IMG/VR virus record: IMGVR_UViG_2778261691_000002
Span: 1 to 7,469 of that record
Strand: one strand, 5' to 3'
Source of the DNA: a virus
Taxonomy: Duplodnaviria; Heunggongvirae; Uroviricota; Caudoviricetes
Length of the DNA stretch: 7,469 nt
Position 1 is the stretch's first letter, and every line of letters starts with the position of its first letter. Made by a program: the position numbers and the translations under genes. The notes under the pieces were generated by a model, which was not told the origin of the DNA, ran no database searches, and saw only the letters and a list, made by a program, of their open reading frames with translations. Of the stretch, positions 1-7,469 are shown piece after piece.

Positions 1-46
1 CTGTGTTCTGGTCATTTGTTGACACACGTACATAGCCAATAAGCAT
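1..46 (-). CDS. Serine DNA invertase (Gin/Cin/Pin/Hin family), N-terminal 15 codons only; gene continues beyond the left window edge
   Basis: Reverse complement of 1..46 reads atg ctt att ggc tat gta cgt gtg tca aca aat gac cag aac aca g = MLIGYVRVSTNDQNT, the N-terminus I recognise from Gin/Pin-type invertases, including the catalytic-serine motif YVRVST. SD-like GGGAG lies 7 nt upstream on the minus strand (revcomp of 54..58). Located 55 bp from a 26-bp crossover site. Gin, Cin and Pin cannot be told apart from 15 residues. Confidence 0.85.
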   Translation of the reverse strand, partial: MLIGYVRVSTNDQNT

Positions 47-72
47 GGTAGATCTCCCTGACAAAAGCAGGA

Positions 73-594
73 ATGATGCCATTTGCTCGTTATTTCTGCA
101 TTTTCATAAACGTTGGTTTGGGAGAAGGTTCTGCGTTGCCTGTTGGCGTACCAGTTCCTTGGCCTTCAGCTACGCCGCCGACAGGCTGGCTGAAATGCAA
201 CGGAGCAGCTTTTTCTGCTGAAGATTACCCTAATCTGGCAAAGGCTTACCCGACGTTAAAATTGCCTGATTTACGCGGTGAGTTTATTCGTGGCTGGGAT
301 GATGGAAAGGGAGTGGATAGTGGGCGAACTCTGCTTTCAGCACAAGGAGATGCTATCCGAAACATTACCGGGGTGGTTGGCTACAGTTCAATTGGCGATT
401 CACAAGGGTTATTAGGATACGTGTCAGGGGCCTTTTCGGCTTCGGAGTCAAAAGCTCCCGCATTAAGTGGTGCATCAGCATCCGGGTATCAACGCTCCCT
501 GTATGCGAATTTTAATGCTTCAGCCGTTGTCCCAACCGCAAATGAGAACCGCCCACGTAACATTGCCTTTAATTATATTGTGAGGGCTGCATAA
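73..594 (+). CDS. Alternative tail-fibre C-terminal cassette (Sv'-like, tail-collar domain), silent in this orientation; functional boundary is the crossover site at 113/114, not the ATG at 73
   Basis: Tail-collar-type motif PTGWLKCNGAAFSAEDYPNLAKAYPTLKLPDLRGEFIRGWDDG. The ORF begins only ~40 nt upstream of the crossover site and has no fibre N-terminal domain. Stop TAA at 592..594 overlaps the ATG of the downstream tfa (TAATG). Confidence 0.75.
   Translation: MMPFARYFCIFINVGLGEGSALPVGVPVPWPSATPPTGWLKCNGAAFSAEDYPNLAKAYPTLKLPDLRGEFIRGWDDGKGVDSGRTLLSAQGDAIRNITGVVGYSSIGDSQGLLGYVSGAFSASESKAPALSGASASGYQRSLYANFNASAVVPTANENRPRNIAFNYIVRAA
101..126. repeat. 26-bp invertase crossover site (gix/pix/hix-like), left copy
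   Basis: Plus strand ttttcataaacg|tt|ggtttgggagaa. The reverse complement of 1992..2017 is ctctcgaaaacc|tt|ggtttgggagaa: 21 of 26 positions identical, same central TT dinucleotide, imperfect dyad symmetry like hix (TTATCAAAAACC TT GGTTTTCAAGAA). Confidence 0.8.
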
Positions 595-1196
595 TGGATA
601 ACGCTGTATTAAATAGCGAGATTATTGCCACGAAGGCAGGGAATATTACCGTCTATAACTATGATGGTGAAACACGGGAATATATTTCCACTTCAAATGA
701 ATATCTTGCCGTTGGTGTTGGTATCCCGGCATATTCCTGTTTAGATTCACCAGGCACATATAAGGCTGGTTATGCTATCTGCCGTTCTGCAGATTTTAAC
801 TCATGGGAATATGTGCCAGACCATCGCGGTGAAATCGTCTATAACACCGAAACGGGAGAAGCCAAAGAAATCACAACTCCGGGTGATTACCCTGAAAATA
901 CAACCACTATCGCCCCGTTAACGCCATACGATAAATGGGATGGTGAGAAATGGGTGACCGATACTGAGGCACAGCACGGCGCAGCAGTAGATGCAGCAGA
1001 AGCACAGCGCCAGTCGCTGATTGATACTGCAATGGCCTCCATCAGTCTGATTCATCTGAAATTACAGGCCGGACGGAAGCTGACGCAGGCAGAAACCACC
1101 CGACTTAACGCTGTGCTGGATTACATTGACGCGGTGACGGCAACAGATACCAGCACCGCGCCGGATGTCATCTGGCCTGAACTGCCGGAGGCGTAG
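594..1196 (+). CDS. Tail fibre assembly chaperone (Tfa family), cognate to the silent fibre cassette
   Basis: 200 aa. C-terminal Tfa signature ...LNAVLDYIDAVTATDTSTAPDVIWPELP (compare lambda Tfa ...VDTSTAPDIEWP...). Start is translationally coupled to the upstream cassette. Length matches what I recall for e14 TfaE. Confidence 0.85.
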   Translation: MDNAVLNSEIIATKAGNITVYNYDGETREYISTSNEYLAVGVGIPAYSCLDSPGTYKAGYAICRSADFNSWEYVPDHRGEIVYNTETGEAKEITTPGDYPENTTTIAPLTPYDKWDGEKWVTDTEAQHGAAVDAAEAQRQSLIDTAMASISLIHLKLQAGRKLTQAETTRLNAVLDYIDAVTATDTSTAPDVIWPELPEA

Positions 1197-1611
1197 GCCA
1201 TTCAATATCTGGCGCCCCGGAAGTATCGACCAGTTCCAGTGCGTCCAGATAATCCAGCCACAAATTATATTGCGCCAGCTCGTCACCTTTCAGACGACCA
1301 ATAGCGGCTTTACCGGGCCATTGTTTACTGTTCATGTATTCGTTGGCCTGGTTAATTAGTAGCTGTCTTTCTGATTCAGTAATTTCAATAAGTTCTTCAT
1401 GCGTGGGTGGAGGAATATCTGCCCACGCAGGCAGCCCATCATCTCCGGCAATACGGATTTTTCCTTGTGGCGGTTCAGCCATAAACTCACTGATAATATT
1501 TTGATTTACTTCCTTAGCGTCTGATAAATCCCACCCCTCTGATTTATATTTATCAATCATATCCACAGGGAAAAAAGCATTATGCCTTGCGCTATAAACA
1601 TATTCGTTCAT
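1168..1611 (-). CDS. Tail fibre assembly chaperone (Tfa family), cognate to the currently expressed fibre
   Basis: C-terminal Tfa signature ...LWLDYLDALELVDTSGAPDIEWPTPP. I prefer the ATG at 1611..1609 (MNEYVYSA...), which has AGGGTGA 7-13 nt upstream, over the GTG at 1620 used by the ORF track. Sits directly downstream of the fibre gene. Confidence 0.8.
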   Translation of the reverse strand: MNEYVYSARHNAFFPVDMIDKYKSEGWDLSDAKEVNQNIISEFMAEPPQGKIRIAGDDGLPAWADIPPPTHEELIEITESERQLLINQANEYMNSKQWPGKAAIGRLKGDELAQYNLWLDYLDALELVDTSGAPDIEWPTPPAVQAR

Positions 1612-1631
1612 ATAAATCACCCTGAATAAAA

Positions 1632-2360
1632 TTACTCACCAACAGCCCACCAACTGTAATTCATCGATACCGTGTCGCTGGTTGATGACGTTCTGTAAGC
1701 AGAATTAAAACCGGTTAATGTTGGGCCTTCTGCGGTCATCACGAATCCCCGCCCAGCACCTAAAGGCGCACCACCATCACCAGAATGAGTAAGCATGGCG
1801 CAGTCCACTTTTTTAGGAAAAGGGATGCTGAATGTAATTCTCATTGTTTGCGTCGATAATGTCGGCGTAACCGCACCACGACCATATTGCAGGATTTTCC
1901 CGTTGGGTAATTTCATCCATCCATCACCACTGGCAAAAGAGGCCATGTCCGGTATCTGATTTTCCCCTGTTCCCACCCCCCGTTTCGCTGCTTCTCCCAA
2001 ACCAAGGTTTTCGAGAGCCGTTTTCACCGTGCCATCCGATTTGATATCACCAAACGGATTCTTGCGGCTCAGGTATTCAACAGCAAACCCCGATCCCAGC
2101 AATTCAACAAAACCGGGCAGATCACCATTATCAAGCACATCCCGTTGCGTTTTATCACTTACAAACTGGGCCAGAGCTGCAGCAATAAAGCTGGCCTGCC
2201 GAATAACCTTATTGACTTGCGCACTGGAGGCTTTCCCTGCTGTAAATCCGGATAAAAGCGCAGGCAACGCTTCCCATTCCTCCTGCGACATAACATTGGC
2301 ATTTTTACCCGTTGCGAATGCTTTAAAGTCATTTTTTGCCATCAGAGTAATACTCCCCAT
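1632..2360 (-). CDS. Tail fibre protein: constant N-terminal part (2360..2006) fused at the crossover site to a variable C-terminal receptor-binding part (1991..1632)
   Basis: Position at the end of the baseplate operon and followed by Tfa. The crossover site is in frame inside the ORF. An alternative start at ATG 2342..2340 (MAKNDF...) overlaps the upstream stop as TGATG and may be the true start. Short for a fibre (236-242 aa). Confidence 0.75.
1992..2017. repeat. 26-bp invertase crossover site, right copy, in inverted orientation relative to 101..126
   Basis: Plus strand ttctcccaaacc|aa|ggttttcgagag. Lies inside the minus-strand tail-fibre ORF, where it encodes ...ALENLGLGE... at the constant/variable junction. 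Confidence 0.8.
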
Positions 2361-3022
2361 GCCCCTACATCAAAACCACTGATAAATTCGTTATCCATAT
2401 CAAAACCAAAAAATTTTGAACCTTCCGATGGGGTTTCCACCGAAGGTGTTTCAATACCACCCGCCCACACCCCGGCGGCTTTTACTGTGAGATATCCCTG
2501 TTTAATTGCAGCAATTAACTCACGCGATACATCTGAAATATCAGTATCAGGAAAGACCCAGACCGATATCGTCATGTCCTGGTTATCGACAATCTGCATT
2601 CGCAGCCCGGATCCTGCTGTCGCCGTGTCAAGAATTGCTGGAAGCGAATCATTCCGTCCGTCCCAGTTATTAATCGCAATCTTCGCTTTAAGAATGACAC
2701 GATAAGTTTCATCGCTGAGATACATGTATCCTGAATCAGGATCGTATGGTCCCTGCCATACCCCCTGATCATATCCAAGCCCGTCGGTATCCCAGCTGAA
2801 ATAGACACCTGAGATAGGCTGGCTGACAACACGGCTACGTCCGATCCACAATCCAAGAATGTCAAGTTGCACACCAACCGCAGAGTCAATATCAAATGCA
2901 GTAATCAGCCCTCTGGTGGCAGCCGCAACATCAATAAGTGGCCGGGTCATCAGATCAACATGCGCAAGAAATTTAGGTTTGGTGGCGTGGTAGTTCGTGA
3001 TTAGTTCGGTGTATTTGCTCAT
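2342..3022 (-). CDS. Baseplate / tail-fibre-proximal protein (DUF2612-like; position equivalent to P2 gpI or Mu gp48)
   Basis: 226 aa. ATGA overlap with the upstream J-like gene at 3019..3022. Sits between the baseplate J-like gene and the tail fibre. Family assignment is by synteny and recollection, not a search. Confidence 0.6.
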
Positions 3023-4218
3023 GTCTCCACCGTTATAACGATATTTTCCGGGGTACAGGACGCAGATTCGTTGTATCTGATATCAATGTTTGATGACGAC
3101 AAAGCCCCCGGGGATTTCCCAATCGTCAGTTCCTGAATATCGTAATAGCGTGCATTCCCGCCACTCACCACGCCAAGATTCGCCGGTGAGTAAATGCGAC
3201 TTAAAAGGACCGAATCACCAATCATCAGACTATTGATATAGTCGGAAATAGCCTGCTGGATCTGCTGCCCTATCTGTGAGGTATAACCCGTAAAAACTTT
3301 TAATTTAATCCGGGCATAAACAGGTACATCACTGGAACGCGAAAATTTGATTACATGGGGATTGCCGTATTTATCCGGAACCGTAACGGATGTTGTACCG
3401 TGAGTGGCTGTTCCCTGGCCTTTATTCCCTCTGATAGCCTGAGCAATATCCGTCACATCACCGCCATCCACAATTACAGCAACAGAGTGTGGCGGTAACC
3501 CGTTACCGTCCTCCGAACCATTATCGTTTTCATAGAGTTTGTGGCGGGTTACACCGGTAACATTAGAAACAGCACCATTCAGTGCTTCAAATGGGGTTAT
3601 TGATGGTAACGCAACACTTTGCGACTGTCGGATACGTAACTCCGCATCAGTTTCTGCTGGAGTGCCTACAGTAGCTGCAGCAGGATTGGTTACCGAAACC
3701 CAGCCACGGGTTGGCGTATTAATTTCAGTGATAGTTCCAGCCAGCGCCGCCACTGCACCACTGACGGAACATGTTGCGGTCACCATCACTGTACCATCCA
3801 CGCCGACCACCACTGAAGCAGGCAAACGCCATATCACATTATTACTGTCTTTCACGCTGCCATTAATGATGGTTGTTCCGGCAGTTCCTGTAAGAAGCAA
3901 ATCAACCGTAGAATTCGTCGCGCCTTTACGTGAAATACCATTTATTTTCACGTTACTGGTCAGTGCAGCCCCATAGCCGGTTGCCGGTGAAAAACAGTTG
4001 TAGACAGTTATCGCCATATTATTGGCATCATGAATCGCCAGCGCCATCAGAGCCACCATCTGGCCGTCTTTGCTGTCCGGTTCGAGGTAGGCATCACTGC
4101 CATAAATCTGCTGAAAATAGCTAATCAGGGTGCTGAGTATCGTCTGATAATCAGGCGCACTGATCCCCTCCGCGGTTACCTTTGCAGATAAACCGAGAGA
4201 ATCAAGGTTCAGAGCCAT
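3019..4218 (-). CDS. Baseplate J-like protein (P2 gpJ / Mu gp47 / T4 gp6 family)
   Basis: 399 aa. TAATG stop/start overlap with the upstream W-like gene at 4216..4220. Position after the gp25/W-like gene. Gly/Thr/Val-rich beta-type composition typical of baseplate wedge proteins. Confidence 0.7.
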   Translation of the reverse strand: MALNLDSLGLSAKVTAEGISAPDYQTILSTLISYFQQIYGSDAYLEPDSKDGQMVALMALAIHDANNMAITVYNCFSPATGYGAALTSNVKINGISRKGATNSTVDLLLTGTAGTTIINGSVKDSNNVIWRLPASVVVGVDGTVMVTATCSVSGAVAALAGTITEINTPTRGWVSVTNPAAATVGTPAETDAELRIRQSQSVALPSITPFEALNGAVSNVTGVTRHKLYENDNGSEDGNGLPPHSVAVIVDGGDVTDIAQAIRGNKGQGTATHGTTSVTVPDKYGNPHVIKFSRSSDVPVYARIKLKVFTGYTSQIGQQIQQAISDYINSLMIGDSVLLSRIYSPANLGVVSGGNARYYDIQELTIGKSPGALSSSNIDIRYNESASCTPENIVITVET

Positions 4219-4571
4219 TACGCCTCCGATGTAACAGTCGTTATTCCATAAAGAGTGTCGATTTCAGCGGAAAACATGACACGTCGGGTCGTGGTATCCA
4301 CCGTCGTATTGAAAGAGAGGATTGATTTAACGCCCTGCGTTTCGAGGATGCGCTTACGGATCGCCAGGTTGTAGGTTTCCGGCTTCTGCTTACCGAGTAC
4401 GGACTGGATCCACGGAGTCCCCTCGGTGGTGTCGAGAAACCATTGCCCATACCACAATTCGAATCGCGTTTTTACCGCCTGCGCCACGGCCTCCGGTGAG
4501 TTAATCAGCCAGGTGTCATCACCGCTGCCAAAGGTGTAATCGCCATCGGCGTCTTCACGTCTGTATCGCAT
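4218..4571 (-). CDS. Baseplate protein, GPW/gp25-like (P2 gpW / Mu gp46 position)
   Basis: 117 aa, the typical size for this family. TGATG overlap with the upstream spike gene at 4569..4573. Synteny V-W-J. Confidence 0.6.
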   Translation of the reverse strand: MRYRREDADGDYTFGSGDDTWLINSPEAVAQAVKTRFELWYGQWFLDTTEGTPWIQSVLGKQKPETYNLAIRKRILETQGVKSILSFNTTVDTTTRRVMFSAEIDTLYGITTVTSEA

Positions 4572-5323
4572 CAGTTTACTCCGTCGGTATTGCTTCCACC
4601 GCGCTGAACACCACCATGAGTGTGCGTATCATCAATTGGCTTGCCGTTAGCCTTCACGCTACCCAAAAACTCAACAGCACCAGTGATTTTTGAAGCCACA
4701 CCAGAAACCACAGACCCCACCATGCCACCCATCCAGGTTAACAGGCCATGAATGGTTACTTTCTCAGAAAAATCAGCCAGAGGGGCAACCACATCAAGAC
4801 CACCCGGAGCGACAATTTTAATTTTCCTGGTATCAGGATTAAGCTCAAAATAGGTGCTGCCGTCATCACTACGCAACTGTGTGGCACTGGTATTAATACC
4901 GCTAATCTTCCTTGCCTGCGACTGGGGACCGACAATACAAAACGCATCCGATAAATCATGCATTCTGTCATCGACCGGCTCCTGTATCCCGCCGCTCTGC
5001 CACCAGAAATCAATACAACGATCGGCAAAAATCATCAAACATTCATCACCGGCTTTAACTGGGAACGTTAGCGTGCATCCTCCGCCGCGCGGGAATACCA
5101 CTGGCACATCCACCAGCAATGGGTAATTTTGGGTAATGCGGTTGCCGTCATTATCCTTTTCAACCGAACGGATAGCAGGCTGCACAACTGCCGTCACCGC
5201 ATCAGGATCGAATGACTGAATAATGCCAGGCAAGGCGACACGGATCTGGTTCTTTGTTGTTTCCCGTTCAGATTTGAATGTTTCGGCAAGGTCGCCGCTG
5301 CGGGTCTGGTCAGATACGGCCAT
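4571..5323 (-). CDS. Baseplate central spike / assembly protein V-like (P2 gpV / Mu gp45 position)
   Basis: 250 aa. ATG at 5323..5321 with GGAG about 10 nt upstream. C-terminal tip ...KPIDDTHTHGGVQRGG has an HxH motif like the metal-binding spike apex. First gene after the inserted cassette and terminator. Confidence 0.65.
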   Translation of the reverse strand: MAVSDQTRSGDLAETFKSERETTKNQIRVALPGIIQSFDPDAVTAVVQPAIRSVEKDNDGNRITQNYPLLVDVPVVFPRGGGCTLTFPVKAGDECLMIFADRCIDFWWQSGGIQEPVDDRMHDLSDAFCIVGPQSQARKISGINTSATQLRSDDGSTYFELNPDTRKIKIVAPGGLDVVAPLADFSEKVTIHGLLTWMGGMVGSVVSGVASKITGAVEFLGSVKANGKPIDDTHTHGGVQRGGSNTDGVN

Positions 5324-5342
5324 TTAGTAGGCTCCAGAAAGC

Positions 5343-5367
5343 AAAAAACCCGCCTGGTGGCGGGTTT
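5343..5367 (-). terminator. Rho-independent terminator for minus-strand transcription
   Basis: Minus-strand RNA: aaacccgcc-acca-ggcggguuuuuu. A GC-rich 6-9 bp stem (cccgcc/ggcggg at 5349..5354 and 5359..5364), 4-nt loop, then a U6 tract. Lies 18 nt downstream of the 57-aa ORF stop and ~20 nt upstream of the spike gene SD. Confidence 0.8.
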
Positions 5368-5384
5368 GATTTATAAGAACTTCA

Positions 5385-5558
5385 CTAACTATCTTTCTTG
5401 GGAAAAGTTGAAGGCTTGTCGTGATAGCTTTCCGTCATAATTTCGATATCCCCGAAAGGTACTCTAGCCATAATCTCTTGCTCATAGTTATCTAGGAAAG
5501 AGACCTCAGGCTCACTTGGTTTAGGTTGTGGTTCATTTTGGTCTTCTGGACAGGACAT
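5385..5558 (-). CDS. Hypothetical small acidic Pro/Glu-rich protein (57 aa), putative partner of the membrane protein
   Basis: Hand translation: MSCPEDQNEPQPKPSEPEVSFLDNYEQEIMARVPFGDIEIMTESYHDKPSTFPKKDS. The ATG at 5558 is 2 nt after the TGA of the upstream membrane gene (TGAatATG), with AAGG 7 nt upstream. Ends 18 nt before the terminator. Not in the ORF track (under 60 aa). No family recognised; could be non-coding. Confidence 0.4.
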   Translation of the reverse strand: MSCPEDQNEPQPKPSEPEVSFLDNYEQEIMARVPFGDIEIMTESYHDKPSTFPKKDS

Positions 5559-5560
5559 AT

Positions 5561-6091
5561 TCAAACCTTACTTATTAACATGCACGTTACAGAAATAATA
5601 AAAAATACAAATGACATAACCATCCATCGAAACAACTCATTTACAAACGCTGATTTTTCTTTATGGATTTTCTCGATTCTATCAATAGCCCTACCATACA
5701 TTATCAAATGAAATCTGACTGTGTCATCTCTACTACCCCTCAGAAGAAATTCATGTTGTTCAGGTGTTCGATGCACAGGCATTTTGGGAATATTTCTAAG
5801 TTCCCAACATTTCCATAAATAATAAAAACAAAAAACCAAACATACAAAACATGAACATAGACACAATAGAGACAATCTTGCGGATAGACTAGTCTTTAAC
5901 TGTTGTCCCAGCTCAAAGGACCCAAAAACGGCTAATAATGCAGAAATCTCAACACCAAGCACAGCAAGAAGAAAATTAGCTTTGTCCTCTAACCGCCTGT
6001 ATGTTGTCTTAACTTCTTCATACCTGTCTCTCGAGTACGACAAAATCGTATCTACTTCAAGGCCAACAGCCTCATTCCTTTGATTGCACAT
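5561..6091 (-). CDS. Hypothetical three-TM membrane protein (176 aa) encoded in an AT-rich insert; no family recognised
   Basis: ATG at 6091..6089. Charged N-terminal ~40 aa, then hydrophobic segments FLLAVLGVEISALLAVFGSF, LSLLCLCSCFVCLVFCFYYLW and WMVMSFVFFIISVTCMLI, with a charged ~60-aa loop between the second and third. An open frame of 176 codons in roughly 36% GC DNA is unlikely by chance. Begins 6 nt after the stop of the signal-peptide gene. Confidence 0.6.
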   Translation of the reverse strand: MCNQRNEAVGLEVDTILSYSRDRYEEVKTTYRRLEDKANFLLAVLGVEISALLAVFGSFELGQQLKTSLSARLSLLCLCSCFVCLVFCFYYLWKCWELRNIPKMPVHRTPEQHEFLLRGSRDDTVRFHLIMYGRAIDRIEKIHKEKSAFVNELFRWMVMSFVFFIISVTCMLISKV

Positions 6092-6097
6092 ATTGTA

Positions 6098-6451
6098 TTA
6101 ATCGTCAACCTTCTTACAAGGAAACGAACCTATGATTCTCGGCGCATCCATGCTGTTCTGCAGTAGTTGGACATTCAAGAAACGCGTTTCGGTACCCGGA
6201 CGGCGAATGAACTCGAAACCGTAATTGTTACCGTCTTTGGCTGGCATAAGCCCCATATCCGCCTTCATTCCATTACCGTTGCCGAGCGTTTTGATTTTCT
6301 GGGAGGTAACTGTCTCACCATTAATCCTGAACAATGAATCAGGAATCAACTCTAATTTGTAGCCACCACACTGAAGCGTGACACCGCCAGGATTCGCAGC
6401 AAATGCGAACCCCGGAAGGAAACAGAGTCCAATAACAATCCACTTTTTCAC
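6098..6451 (-). CDS. Hypothetical secreted/periplasmic protein with Sec signal peptide (117 aa)
   Basis: N-terminus MKKWIVIGLCFLPGFAFA|ANPGG is a classic signal peptide with an AFA-A signal peptidase I site and no lipobox. GTG start at 6451..6449 shares one base with the TAG of the upstream gene (taGTG), with GAGG upstream. Two Cys in the mature part (possible disulfide). Normal GC (~47%). Confidence 0.65.
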   Translation of the reverse strand: MKKWIVIGLCFLPGFAFAANPGGVTLQCGGYKLELIPDSLFRINGETVTSQKIKTLGNGNGMKADMGLMPAKDGNNYGFEFIRRPGTETRFLNVQLLQNSMDAPRIIGSFPCKKVDD

Positions 6452-7469
6452 TATCCTACCTCACGCTGTAAAGACGACGCCGAACGAAGATCCGCCGCAC
6501 CGCGCGCTTCGCACATCATATCCATGTACCACGCCTGGCCCCTTGTGTCGCCAGTGTACATAATCCCGCGCACAATATAAACGCCATCCGTTGCGATGCT
6601 GGCAGGCTGCGATATGGTGCCGCTTAGCGTAATATTTCCGTCCGTGTTCTGGTCGGTGATCTGCCCACCAGCCATAGCGATATCGTTGTTCGACAACGCG
6701 GTGCGATATACGGAAGCCTGATCCAGTTGAATGAGCCCATTAACCCGGATGTTCGGATTAATAAGCGCGCGGACGTTTACGCCGTTGCCGATGGTCTGCT
6801 GCGGCATGCCAATAAGCCCGGTAGCGCTGTTGAGCACAATCGCTTCGTGAACATATTCATTATTCACCACCATCTGGCGCTGACCATCCACGAATTGCCA
6901 TGTTGCGCCACATTGCCCGGCTACGTTATCCATTAGATGCCGCGTCATGCCAAAGAGCACCCGCCCCCGGGGGAATACAGTAGCAGGCATTTCAGGCGTC
7001 AGGCCTTCGGTCGCACCTTTGGCTTCGAAGTCTTTCATCAGCGCACGGTTCACATCAGCGACCGTGTAACCGGCAGCCAGCGTCTGTGAGGTTATACTGG
7101 TGGCAAAAGCCAGATCAGTATCTGCTGCCTGAATCAGGACGTAGGAATCAACCGGACTGTCTTTTCCTGTGACCGAGTAGCGAATTTCACCGCTGAAAAT
7201 CAGTCCGTAGTTGCGGCCATCTCTCTGGCCCACATCTGCCGCGTCGACTTCGCGCACGGTCCCGACGTCGCTTGCCGCCACCTCCGGCGCGATACCGTCG
7301 TAACCGGCAATCAGCCGCACTTTCGAAAATTCCTTCCCGGTGATTCGGTTCACAGTATCTGCCGAGAGGTTATAAATTTTGATAGTCCCTACCCGGGACG
7401 CGCTGCTGATGTTGAACCAGTCGATCGTAAAGGTGACTTTGAAATCACTTAGCTCAATTCCCTGACCGT
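6451..7469 (-). CDS. Phage tail/baseplate structural protein, 5'-truncated by the window edge (possibly baseplate hub, Mu gp44 / P2 gpD position)
   Basis: The frame stays open from the annotated GTG at 7353 up to position 7469 (hand-translated upstream codons ...GQGIELSDFKVTFTIDWFNISSASRVGTIKIYNLSADT-V-NRITGKEF...), so the real start is outside the window. Gly/Thr/Asn/Val-rich composition. The hub assignment is from synteny only. Confidence 0.5.
   Translation of the reverse strand, partial: GQGIELSDFKVTFTIDWFNISSASRVGTIKIYNLSADTVNRITGKEFSKVRLIAGYDGIAPEVAASDVGTVREVDAADVGQRDGRNYGLIFSGEIRYSVTGKDSPVDSYVLIQAADTDLAFATSITSQTLAAGYTVADVNRALMKDFEAKGATEGLTPEMPATVFPRGRVLFGMTRHLMDNVAGQCGATWQFVDGQRQMVVNNEYVHEAIVLNSATGLIGMPQQTIGNGVNVRALINPNIRVNGLIQLDQASVYRTALSNNDIAMAGGQITDQNTDGNITLSGTISQPASIATDGVYIVRGIMYTGDTRGQAWYMDMMCEARGAADLRSASSLQREVG

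Follow-up and report, generated by a model that had tools for sequence, protein, structure and literature searches.

The hairpin that precedes the baseplate spike gene in the DNA analysed here (IMG/VR record IMGVR_UViG_2778261691_000002, 7,469 nt; henceforth, the window) is probably best explained as a moron-type terminator, or insulator, which stands at the right border of a slot for accessory genes and is read through by RNA polymerase modified by the antiterminator Q. The backbone of the window is 97% identical to that of Escherichia coli phage vB_EcoM-606R2 and ~79% identical to that of Salmonella phage SEN34 (genus Brunovirus), and its exact cargo occurs in eight complete E. coli genomes, including ECONIH2 (100%) and IAI1 (99.7%), where the prophage adjoins yfhH/tadA. 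SEN34 is a myovirus with lambda-like regulation (PMC5261728), and the source of the window is a SEN34-like (Brunovirus-type) prophage that combines lambdoid regulation with a Mu-type contractile tail. A protein-level search of isolated phages returned only 12 records with a spike identity of at least 60%.

The hairpin and its gene context in the window

All of the genes around the hairpin are on the minus strand (Table 1), and the hairpin lies on the same strand, 17 nt 3' of the TAG stop codon (5387-5385) of the last cargo ORF. Read along this strand, the order of elements is GATAGT, TAG, TGAAGTTCTTATAAATC, AAACCCGCC, ACCA, GGCGGGTTT, TTTGCTTTCT, GGAG, CCTACTAA, and ATG. The first three T residues of the T6 run are paired with the AAA of the stem, and the 22 nt that separate the end of the stem from the spike ATG are taken up by the T-run and the Shine-Dalgarno sequence. 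A preliminary description of this DNA had placed a GC stem with a U6 tail on the minus strand, ~20 nt upstream of the spike gene, and its coordinates proved to be correct. The strength that it attributed to the stem was borne out as well, i.e., the 35-nt element folds at -15.7 kcal/mol as compared to -6.0 ± 2.2 for 200 dinucleotide shuffles (z = -4.5), none of which was as good. In its 67-nt context, the fold reached -22.3 (z = -3.5) and included an outer helix that joins the GGAG region to cargo sequence. A consensus scan ranked the hairpin (9 pairs, 6 of them G-C) first among the terminator-like sites of the window. Since the window-wide count of weak terminator-like matches was not above chance (9 vs. 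6.8 ± 2.9), the case for the hairpin rests on its strength and conservation. It has the anatomy of an intrinsic terminator, i.e., a G+C-rich stem, a short loop, and a U-tract on the 3' side, on the coding strand and past a stop codon. Rfam searches of the whole window and one related locus gave only sub-threshold matches to generic terminator-like hairpins (P9, E = 0.49) and assigned the hairpin to no known RNA family. By these sequence characteristics, the element is a genuine, strong, and deeply conserved predicted intrinsic (Rho-independent) terminator.

Table 1. Features of the window, listed in the direction of minus-strand transcription.
Feature	Position	Strand	Remarks
Baseplate hub, 3' part	6451..7469, runs past window end	-	phrog_196, E = 3e-67; PF22759 weak
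Small conserved protein, 117 aa	6098..6451	-	phrog_3443; N-terminal signal-peptide-like sequence
Promoter-like site TTGTAA-16-TACAAT	6092..6119	-	Left cargo junction; -10 abuts ATG
First cargo ORF, 176 aa	5561..6091	-	Low G+C; phrog_18554, E = 5e-60
Second cargo ORF, 59 aa from TTG	5385..5564	-	Acidic; phrog_18231, E = 2e-6
Predicted terminator hairpin	5346..5367	-	9-bp stem (6 G-C + 3 A-U), 4-nt loop ACCA
Stem arms	5367-5359 with 5354-5346	-	AAACCCGCC pairs with GGCGGGTTT; loop ACCA 5358-5355
U-tract	5336..5348	-	T6 (5348-5343), then GCTTTCT
Spike ribosome-binding site and start	5321..5335	-	GGAG 5335-5332; ATG 5323-5321
Baseplate central spike, 250 aa	4571..5323	-	First gene past terminator; gpV-type N-terminal domain and apex motif
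gp25-like wedge protein	4218-4571	-	
Baseplate J	3019-4218	-	
DUF2612 protein	2342-3022	-	
Tail fibre	1632-2360	-	
Tail-fibre chaperone (tfa)	1168-1620	-	

Upstream of the hairpin, the hub gene has homologues of 355 aa in SEN34 and ECONIH2. The start of the phrog_3443 gene overlaps the hub stop, and its own stop codon forms the left boundary of the slot. Its product has a signal-peptide-like N-terminus (VKKWIVIGLCFLPGFAFA, followed by ANPGG) and a conserved C-terminus ending in PKIIGSFPCKKV, and belongs to no Pfam or NCBIfam family. The gene is present in most related loci and missing from some; therefore, phrog_3443 is itself semi-accessory. The window's cassette begins 6 nt past this gene, and the G+C content of its ORFs is 0.34-0.40 vs. 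0.50-0.58 for the hub and spike genes. The 176-aa cargo protein has three hydrophobic stretches, judged by eye to be membrane-spanning, while the second cargo ORF, more likely 57 aa from the ATG at 5558, had no match in Pfam, NCBIfam, or PADLOC. Across Pfam, NCBIfam, PADLOC, and PDB sequences, the window's cargo proteins gave only uncharacterised PHROGs and, for the 176-aa protein, weak PycTM-like matches (E = 3e-4). RefSeq has no CDS for the 176-aa and ~57-aa ORFs in IAI1 (L165 20001-20774) or ECONIH2 (L166 20001-20774), and the locus-tag numbering skips one, so the cassette is invisible in standard annotation.

Downstream of the hairpin, the spike protein belongs to PF18352 (E = 2e-44), PF18946, and TIGR01644, and its RefSeq product name is "membrane-puncturing spike protein." The tight coupling previously described for the genes from spike to tfa was confirmed, with overlaps of 1, 1, 4, and 19 nt and a single 11-nt gap before tfa. 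At the far end of the window (1-1200, plus strand), a set of genes encoding an alternative C-terminus of the tail fibre, and a chaperone, is convergent with the fibre and tfa genes of the minus strand (1168-2360), and ECONIH2 carries a pinE invertase beside its fibre and chaperone genes. This arrangement indicates an invertible host-range segment of the P2/Mu type.

The slot and its hairpin in related loci

We fetched 160 loci encoding the spike protein (80 from viral contigs and 80 from genomes; spike identity 45-100%) from genera including Escherichia, Salmonella, Citrobacter, Enterobacter, Erwinia, Pantoea, Yersinia, Rahnella, Serratia, and Photorhabdus. Between hub and spike, these loci have anything from an overlap to an interval of ~2.8 kb. 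On its left, the slot is bounded by the stop codon of phrog_3443, or by that of the hub gene if phrog_3443 is absent, and unrelated sequence follows directly. On its right, the slot ends at the hairpin foot, and homology between phages resumes there. When this right boundary was compared for 20 cargo types in phages with spikes at least 88% identical, 186 of 190 pairs of loci with different cargo lost homology 0-4 nt from the CCCGC core, and positions -20 to +90 relative to the spike ATG were 92% identical across the 20 types. Inserts of at least 150 nt (150-2800 nt) were found in 129 loci and fell into 59 sequence clusters with G+C contents of 0.35-0.46, i.e., at least 59 cargo types that are unrelated to one another. 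The cargo sampled includes PD-Lambda-1 (E = 5e-83), a YafO-family toxin, DUF4282 and DUF2335 membrane proteins, a secreted OB-fold protein, and a T5orf172 protein. The largest cargo group consists of two genes (~250 aa and ~130 aa), and the smaller protein, with an RSAISRAYY..YH motif, gave only a marginal HEPN match (PADLOC HEPN_IX, E = 0.009). Loci with known or likely defence or toxin cargo include L100, L101, and L122, the L014 cluster, and L019/L027/L010/L025/L044/L055/L080/L105.

Some of the cargo is 91-98% identical across backbones that are only 75-83% identical, and cargo that is more alike than the backbones carrying it shows recent exchange. Since one cargo type was found with different local hairpin variants, the hairpin belongs to the recipient backbone. 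A terminator can also travel with cargo, as judged from one Yersinia artesiana locus (L104) that has two tandem terminators ~60-100 nt before the spike gene. The second matches the local type, and the first, which has a truncated GCTTTCT leader, corresponds to the type of the E. coli/Salmonella clade; the pair looks like the footprint of cargo imported along with its own terminator. A separate observation concerns a 19-nt motif, CCTGAYATTTGATCAGTAA, which has 5-bp inverted arms and contains GATC. The motif lies directly 5' of the hairpin, touching the 5' side of the terminator stem, in nine loci (L041/L045/L046, L061, L098, L106, L142, L146, and L153) whose backbones differ widely and whose cargo is mostly unrelated. 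In three Photorhabdus loci (L125 2953, L127 2461, and L131 2740), it lies inside the cargo, 1.0-1.5 kb upstream. The motif does not occur in the window and had no match in Rfam; it may represent an operator, the remnant of a gene, or an sRNA seed.

To be scored, a hairpin had to have a dG of -6 or lower and a T-run, and to lie no more than 90 nt from the spike ATG. By this measure, 146 of the 161 sequences evaluated had a hairpin with a T-run (median dG, -13.8 kcal/mol). One call (L161) was false and lay within coding sequence, and one hairpin with a long loop (L128) was missed by the script and seen by eye; genuine scored hairpins are present in ~145 of the 161 loci, which extend from Escherichia to Photorhabdus, Serratia, and Pantoea. 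The stem usually ends 15-25 nt ahead of the spike ATG, and the ~74 distinct hairpin sequences have loops of 3-12 nt. In an alignment of 62 distinct sequences (A1), the T-run and GGAG were invariant or nearly so (GGAG or GGGG being kept) and the stem core was >90% conserved, with loop columns free to vary. Across the 9-pair helix, 87% of cells pair, as compared to 34-59% when the partner column is shifted. Changes on both sides occurred in five of the nine pairs vs. 2.0 ± 0.8 in shuffles (0 of 500), and RNAalifold recovered a core of five pairs, three of which show compensatory changes (e.g., CCTGC/GCAGG and CCCACC/GGTGGG). Covariation is thus real and above the shuffle control; it is modest, as most of the stem core keeps its sequence. 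Stronger arguments than covariation are that the loop varies on a stem that is fixed, that the T-run is invariant, and that the position does not change. Two other classes of element were considered for the hairpin and rejected. A protein-binding dyad, such as a site for a Mu C/Mor-type activator, does not agree with loops of 3-12 nt, compensatory stem changes, and an ATG that is too near for a promoter. Likewise, an integron attC-type site does not agree with a single 22-nt perfect G+C hairpin and T-run that is accompanied by neither a left-boundary repeat nor an adjacent integrase.

The hairpin was found in none of the 10 loci in which the hub or phrog_3443 gene abuts the spike gene; in these cargo-free loci, the spike gene overlaps the hub gene. 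Ten empty slots of 30-86 nt (L099, L109, L117, L118, L136, L137, L149, L154, L155, and L160) keep the hairpin and T-run, and they come from several lineages and have different stem sequences. Among known phages such as ST64B, only SEN34 matched the empty-slot Salmonella locus L136 (73%). The T-run has been lost from the sister empty loci L151, L156, and L120. Of the eight cargo types with their largest ORF on the opposite strand, seven also kept the hairpin. One opposite-strand type, represented by two loci (L054 and L059), is without a spike-proximal hairpin; the far side of its slot, directly past the phrog_3443 stop, instead carries a hairpin flanked by T-runs (AAAGCCTCA...TGAGGCTTTTTT). 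Overall, the hairpin correlates with the existence of an intergenic slot and is not just one cassette's own terminator. Since it is kept in empty and opposite-strand slots, a pure "cargo terminator" role does not explain it, and a role for the backbone is possible.

These results bear on the earlier claim that the hairpin marks the window's cassette as a separate expression module. The claim held only in part. The cassette is inserted DNA of deviant G+C content with a terminator downstream. However, the terminator is tied to the backbone and slot, with the same core accompanying at least 59 cargos, and it persists in the 10 empty slots and in seven of eight opposite-strand types. A promoter for the cassette was likewise elusive. 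The TTGTAA-16-TACAAT site (Table 1) was rejected as a cargo promoter, as its -10 element lies against the ATG and the site is not conserved in the homologous-cargo loci L031 and L087; judged from its sequence, it is probably non-functional for the first cargo ORF. A promoter scan of the window gave 10 matches vs. 10.4 expected and none between hairpin and spike. Among the 59 cargo types, sigma-70-like sites occurred near the cargo start in 19, a modest enrichment over the 12.0 ± 3.1 in shuffles (5 of 200 as high), and inside the spike gene in none. Some cargo types therefore look self-driven, while the window's cargo may be a late gene or may be served by a promoter further upstream.

Transcription from spike to tfa and rival explanations

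In 606R2, SEN34, ECONIH2, and IAI1, a Q antiterminator gene is followed by a ~400-nt gap and then by late genes in one direction, in the order holin, endolysin, terminase, head, tail, and fibre. The 7.5-kb window does not extend to Q, which was seen in prophages with a near-identical backbone and in SEN34; Pfam confirmed it in 606R2 (PF06530, E = 8e-41) and SEN34 (PF03589, E = 1e-50), and it is annotated in ECONIH2 and IAI1. The gap between Q and holin in ECONIH2 contains a 9-bp hairpin followed by T7 (L166 38058-38037). Within the ~18-kb late operon of ECONIH2, the pre-spike hairpin is the only canonical same-strand terminator, and it is likewise the only internal one in the late region of SEN34. 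Two differences in annotation and gene content were seen among these phages. The hub of 606R2 (L164 10410-11474) is annotated as two ORFs (212 and 139 aa) and is one 355-aa gene in SEN34, IAI1, and ECONIH2; a frameshift or an error in sequencing could account for the split. In SEN34, the spike and gp25-like genes, which overlap in the window, are separated by a second small insertion, the 46-aa ORF gp23 (L163 17073-17314).

The preliminary description had offered two options for the genes beyond the hairpin: antitermination, or a promoter for the baseplate genes that overlaps the hairpin region. The latter fared poorly, as only 22 nt are available, no promoter-like match occurs there, and the sequence 5' of the hairpin is non-homologous, being unrelated between cargo types. 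Since there is no room for a promoter, the 5' sequence is unrelated, and the spike gene overlaps the hub gene where cargo is absent, spike to tfa would have to be transcribed by read-through from upstream. The antitermination option fits the position of Q ahead of a single co-directional late operon in near-identical backbones. Q renders RNA polymerase terminator-resistant (PMC9388147; bioRxiv 10.1101/651190), and a Q-modified polymerase is most likely the simplest mechanism of read-through, as judged from the way the genome is organised and from the established behaviour of Q. Under the preferred explanation, the intrinsic terminator would serve as the fixed right-hand boundary of a variable slot between the hub, or the small secreted-type protein, and the spike. 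In a lysogen, transcription entering or starting in the slot would stop at the hairpin, which would presumably keep the genes for spike, baseplate, and tail fibre silent. After induction, polymerase modified by Q at the late promoter would ignore the hairpin, and a single late transcript would continue into spike through tfa, an expectation that again draws on genome organisation and what is known of Q. A further, rather doubtful extension is that the insulator is encoded by the backbone, defines the slot, is gated by Q, predates its cargos, and outlasts them in empty slots and beside reverse-oriented genes, providing a safe harbour upstream of an essential tail gene, with the ~22 bp perhaps acting as a homology anchor for the exchange of unrelated defence cargo among Enterobacterales prophages with diverged flanks.

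Conservation of the hairpin in empty slots of several lineages, with different stems, and in seven of eight reverse-oriented cargo types could also mean that it is a checkpoint intrinsic to the late operon. Baseplate and fibre expression would then be antitermination-dependent or attenuated with or without cargo, and cargo would gather upstream only because the position is harmless. That hairpins go with the backbone when the same cargo type is found beside different local variants, and that homology resumes at the hairpin foot, agree with such a role. However, the absence of the hairpin from all 10 abutting loci shows that this type of phage works without it, the lost T-runs of L151, L156, and L120 look like decay after loss of cargo, and a Q-modified polymerase would escape attenuation. 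We therefore consider a checkpoint unlikely. Transcription of spike to tfa from a promoter of its own over the hairpin region, with one late transcript ending and another starting there, has a precedent in Mu, in which a separate late transcript starts near the hub gene. No such promoter was found here and the analogy is what speaks for it; against it are the 22 nt of T-run and Shine-Dalgarno sequence with no promoter-like match, the unrelated sequence 5' of the hairpin in relatives, and the overlap of hub and spike in cargo-free loci, which together make a separate promoter exceedingly improbable.

The hairpin might instead act mainly in mRNA stability or processing, with little effect on transcription itself. 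It might guard hub and cargo RNA from 3' exonucleases after cleavage, or shape translation of the spike gene, as it lies 10 nt ahead of the spike Shine-Dalgarno sequence in every locus and the outer helix of the 67-nt fold pairs the GGAG region with cargo. However, the outer helix relies on cargo sequence that is not conserved, and the invariant T6-T8 run after the stem is a hallmark of termination that stability does not need, so a stability or processing hairpin has only a slight chance of being correct. A boundary acting at the level of DNA, in which the ~22-bp hairpin and T-run are a homology anchor or target for cargo exchange, is similarly improbable. Such a boundary is consistent with the sharp breaks in homology at the hairpin foot, the 91-98% identity of cargo on backbones 75-83% identical, the tandem terminators of L104, one of a foreign clade type, as an import footprint, and the RecT and exonuclease encoded by SEN34. 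However, purifying selection on any functional element also gives sharp edges, the left boundary is a plain stop codon with no repeat, and no recombinase is linked to the slot. In addition, free variation of the loop together with conservation of the T-run points to a function in RNA.

The slot as a hotspot and its likeness to known systems

A more useful result than the terminator is a precisely bounded hotspot for accessory genes that spans the interval from the hub or phrog_3443 stop codon to the conserved terminator foot in SEN34-like prophages of many Enterobacterales. Our literature searches found no described hub/spike hotspot and nothing specific on SEN34 transcription. The boundaries of the slot translate into a simple rule, based on sequence, by which candidate genes for defence or exclusion can be collected, and the slot itself is a natural test bed for the insulation, by a terminator, of prophage cargo from toxic structural genes. 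The defence hotspots of P2-like phages and their P4-like satellites (Rousset et al., 2022, as cited in PMC11364771) are alike in that conserved core genes flank a site at which unrelated defence or toxin systems are interchangeable, and a known system, PD-Lambda-1, is among the cargo of the hub/spike slot. They differ in phage group and location, and the boundary here is a conserved terminator before an essential structural gene. In Tn916, a terminator likewise blocks premature downstream expression and is overcome by the element's own antitermination (PMC11658703). However, the analogy is one of logic only; Tn916 is conjugative, belongs to Gram-positive bacteria, and works by an unrelated mechanism.

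Closer parallels are found in the lambdoid phages. Lambda-type Q antitermination (PMC9388147; bioRxiv 10.1101/651190) shares with the present system Q itself, a promoter-proximal terminator, a long co-directional late operon, and an internal terminator that must be read through for the tail genes to be expressed. The differences are that the Q families are not the same in 606R2 (PF06530) and SEN34 (PF03589), and that the tail here is contractile and of the Mu type. Morons are defined by deviant G+C content, their own promoter, and their own terminator (PMC3594210), and the window's cassette has inserted DNA, deviant G+C content, and a downstream terminator. Lambdoid morons such as HK97 gene 15, in the tail operon, and lambda lom and bor are similarly low-G+C DNA between structural genes that are adjacent in relatives, with a factor-independent terminator inside a Q-dependent late operon, and their cargo includes a small membrane protein (PMC3594210). 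However, the position here is between hub and spike rather than between chaperone and tape-measure genes, and the window's cassette is without a clear promoter. In addition, the terminator here is a fixture of the slot that is shared by at least 59 cargo types and survives in empty slots. With these differences, the element is of a known kind, probably a moron-type terminator in an antiterminated late operon.
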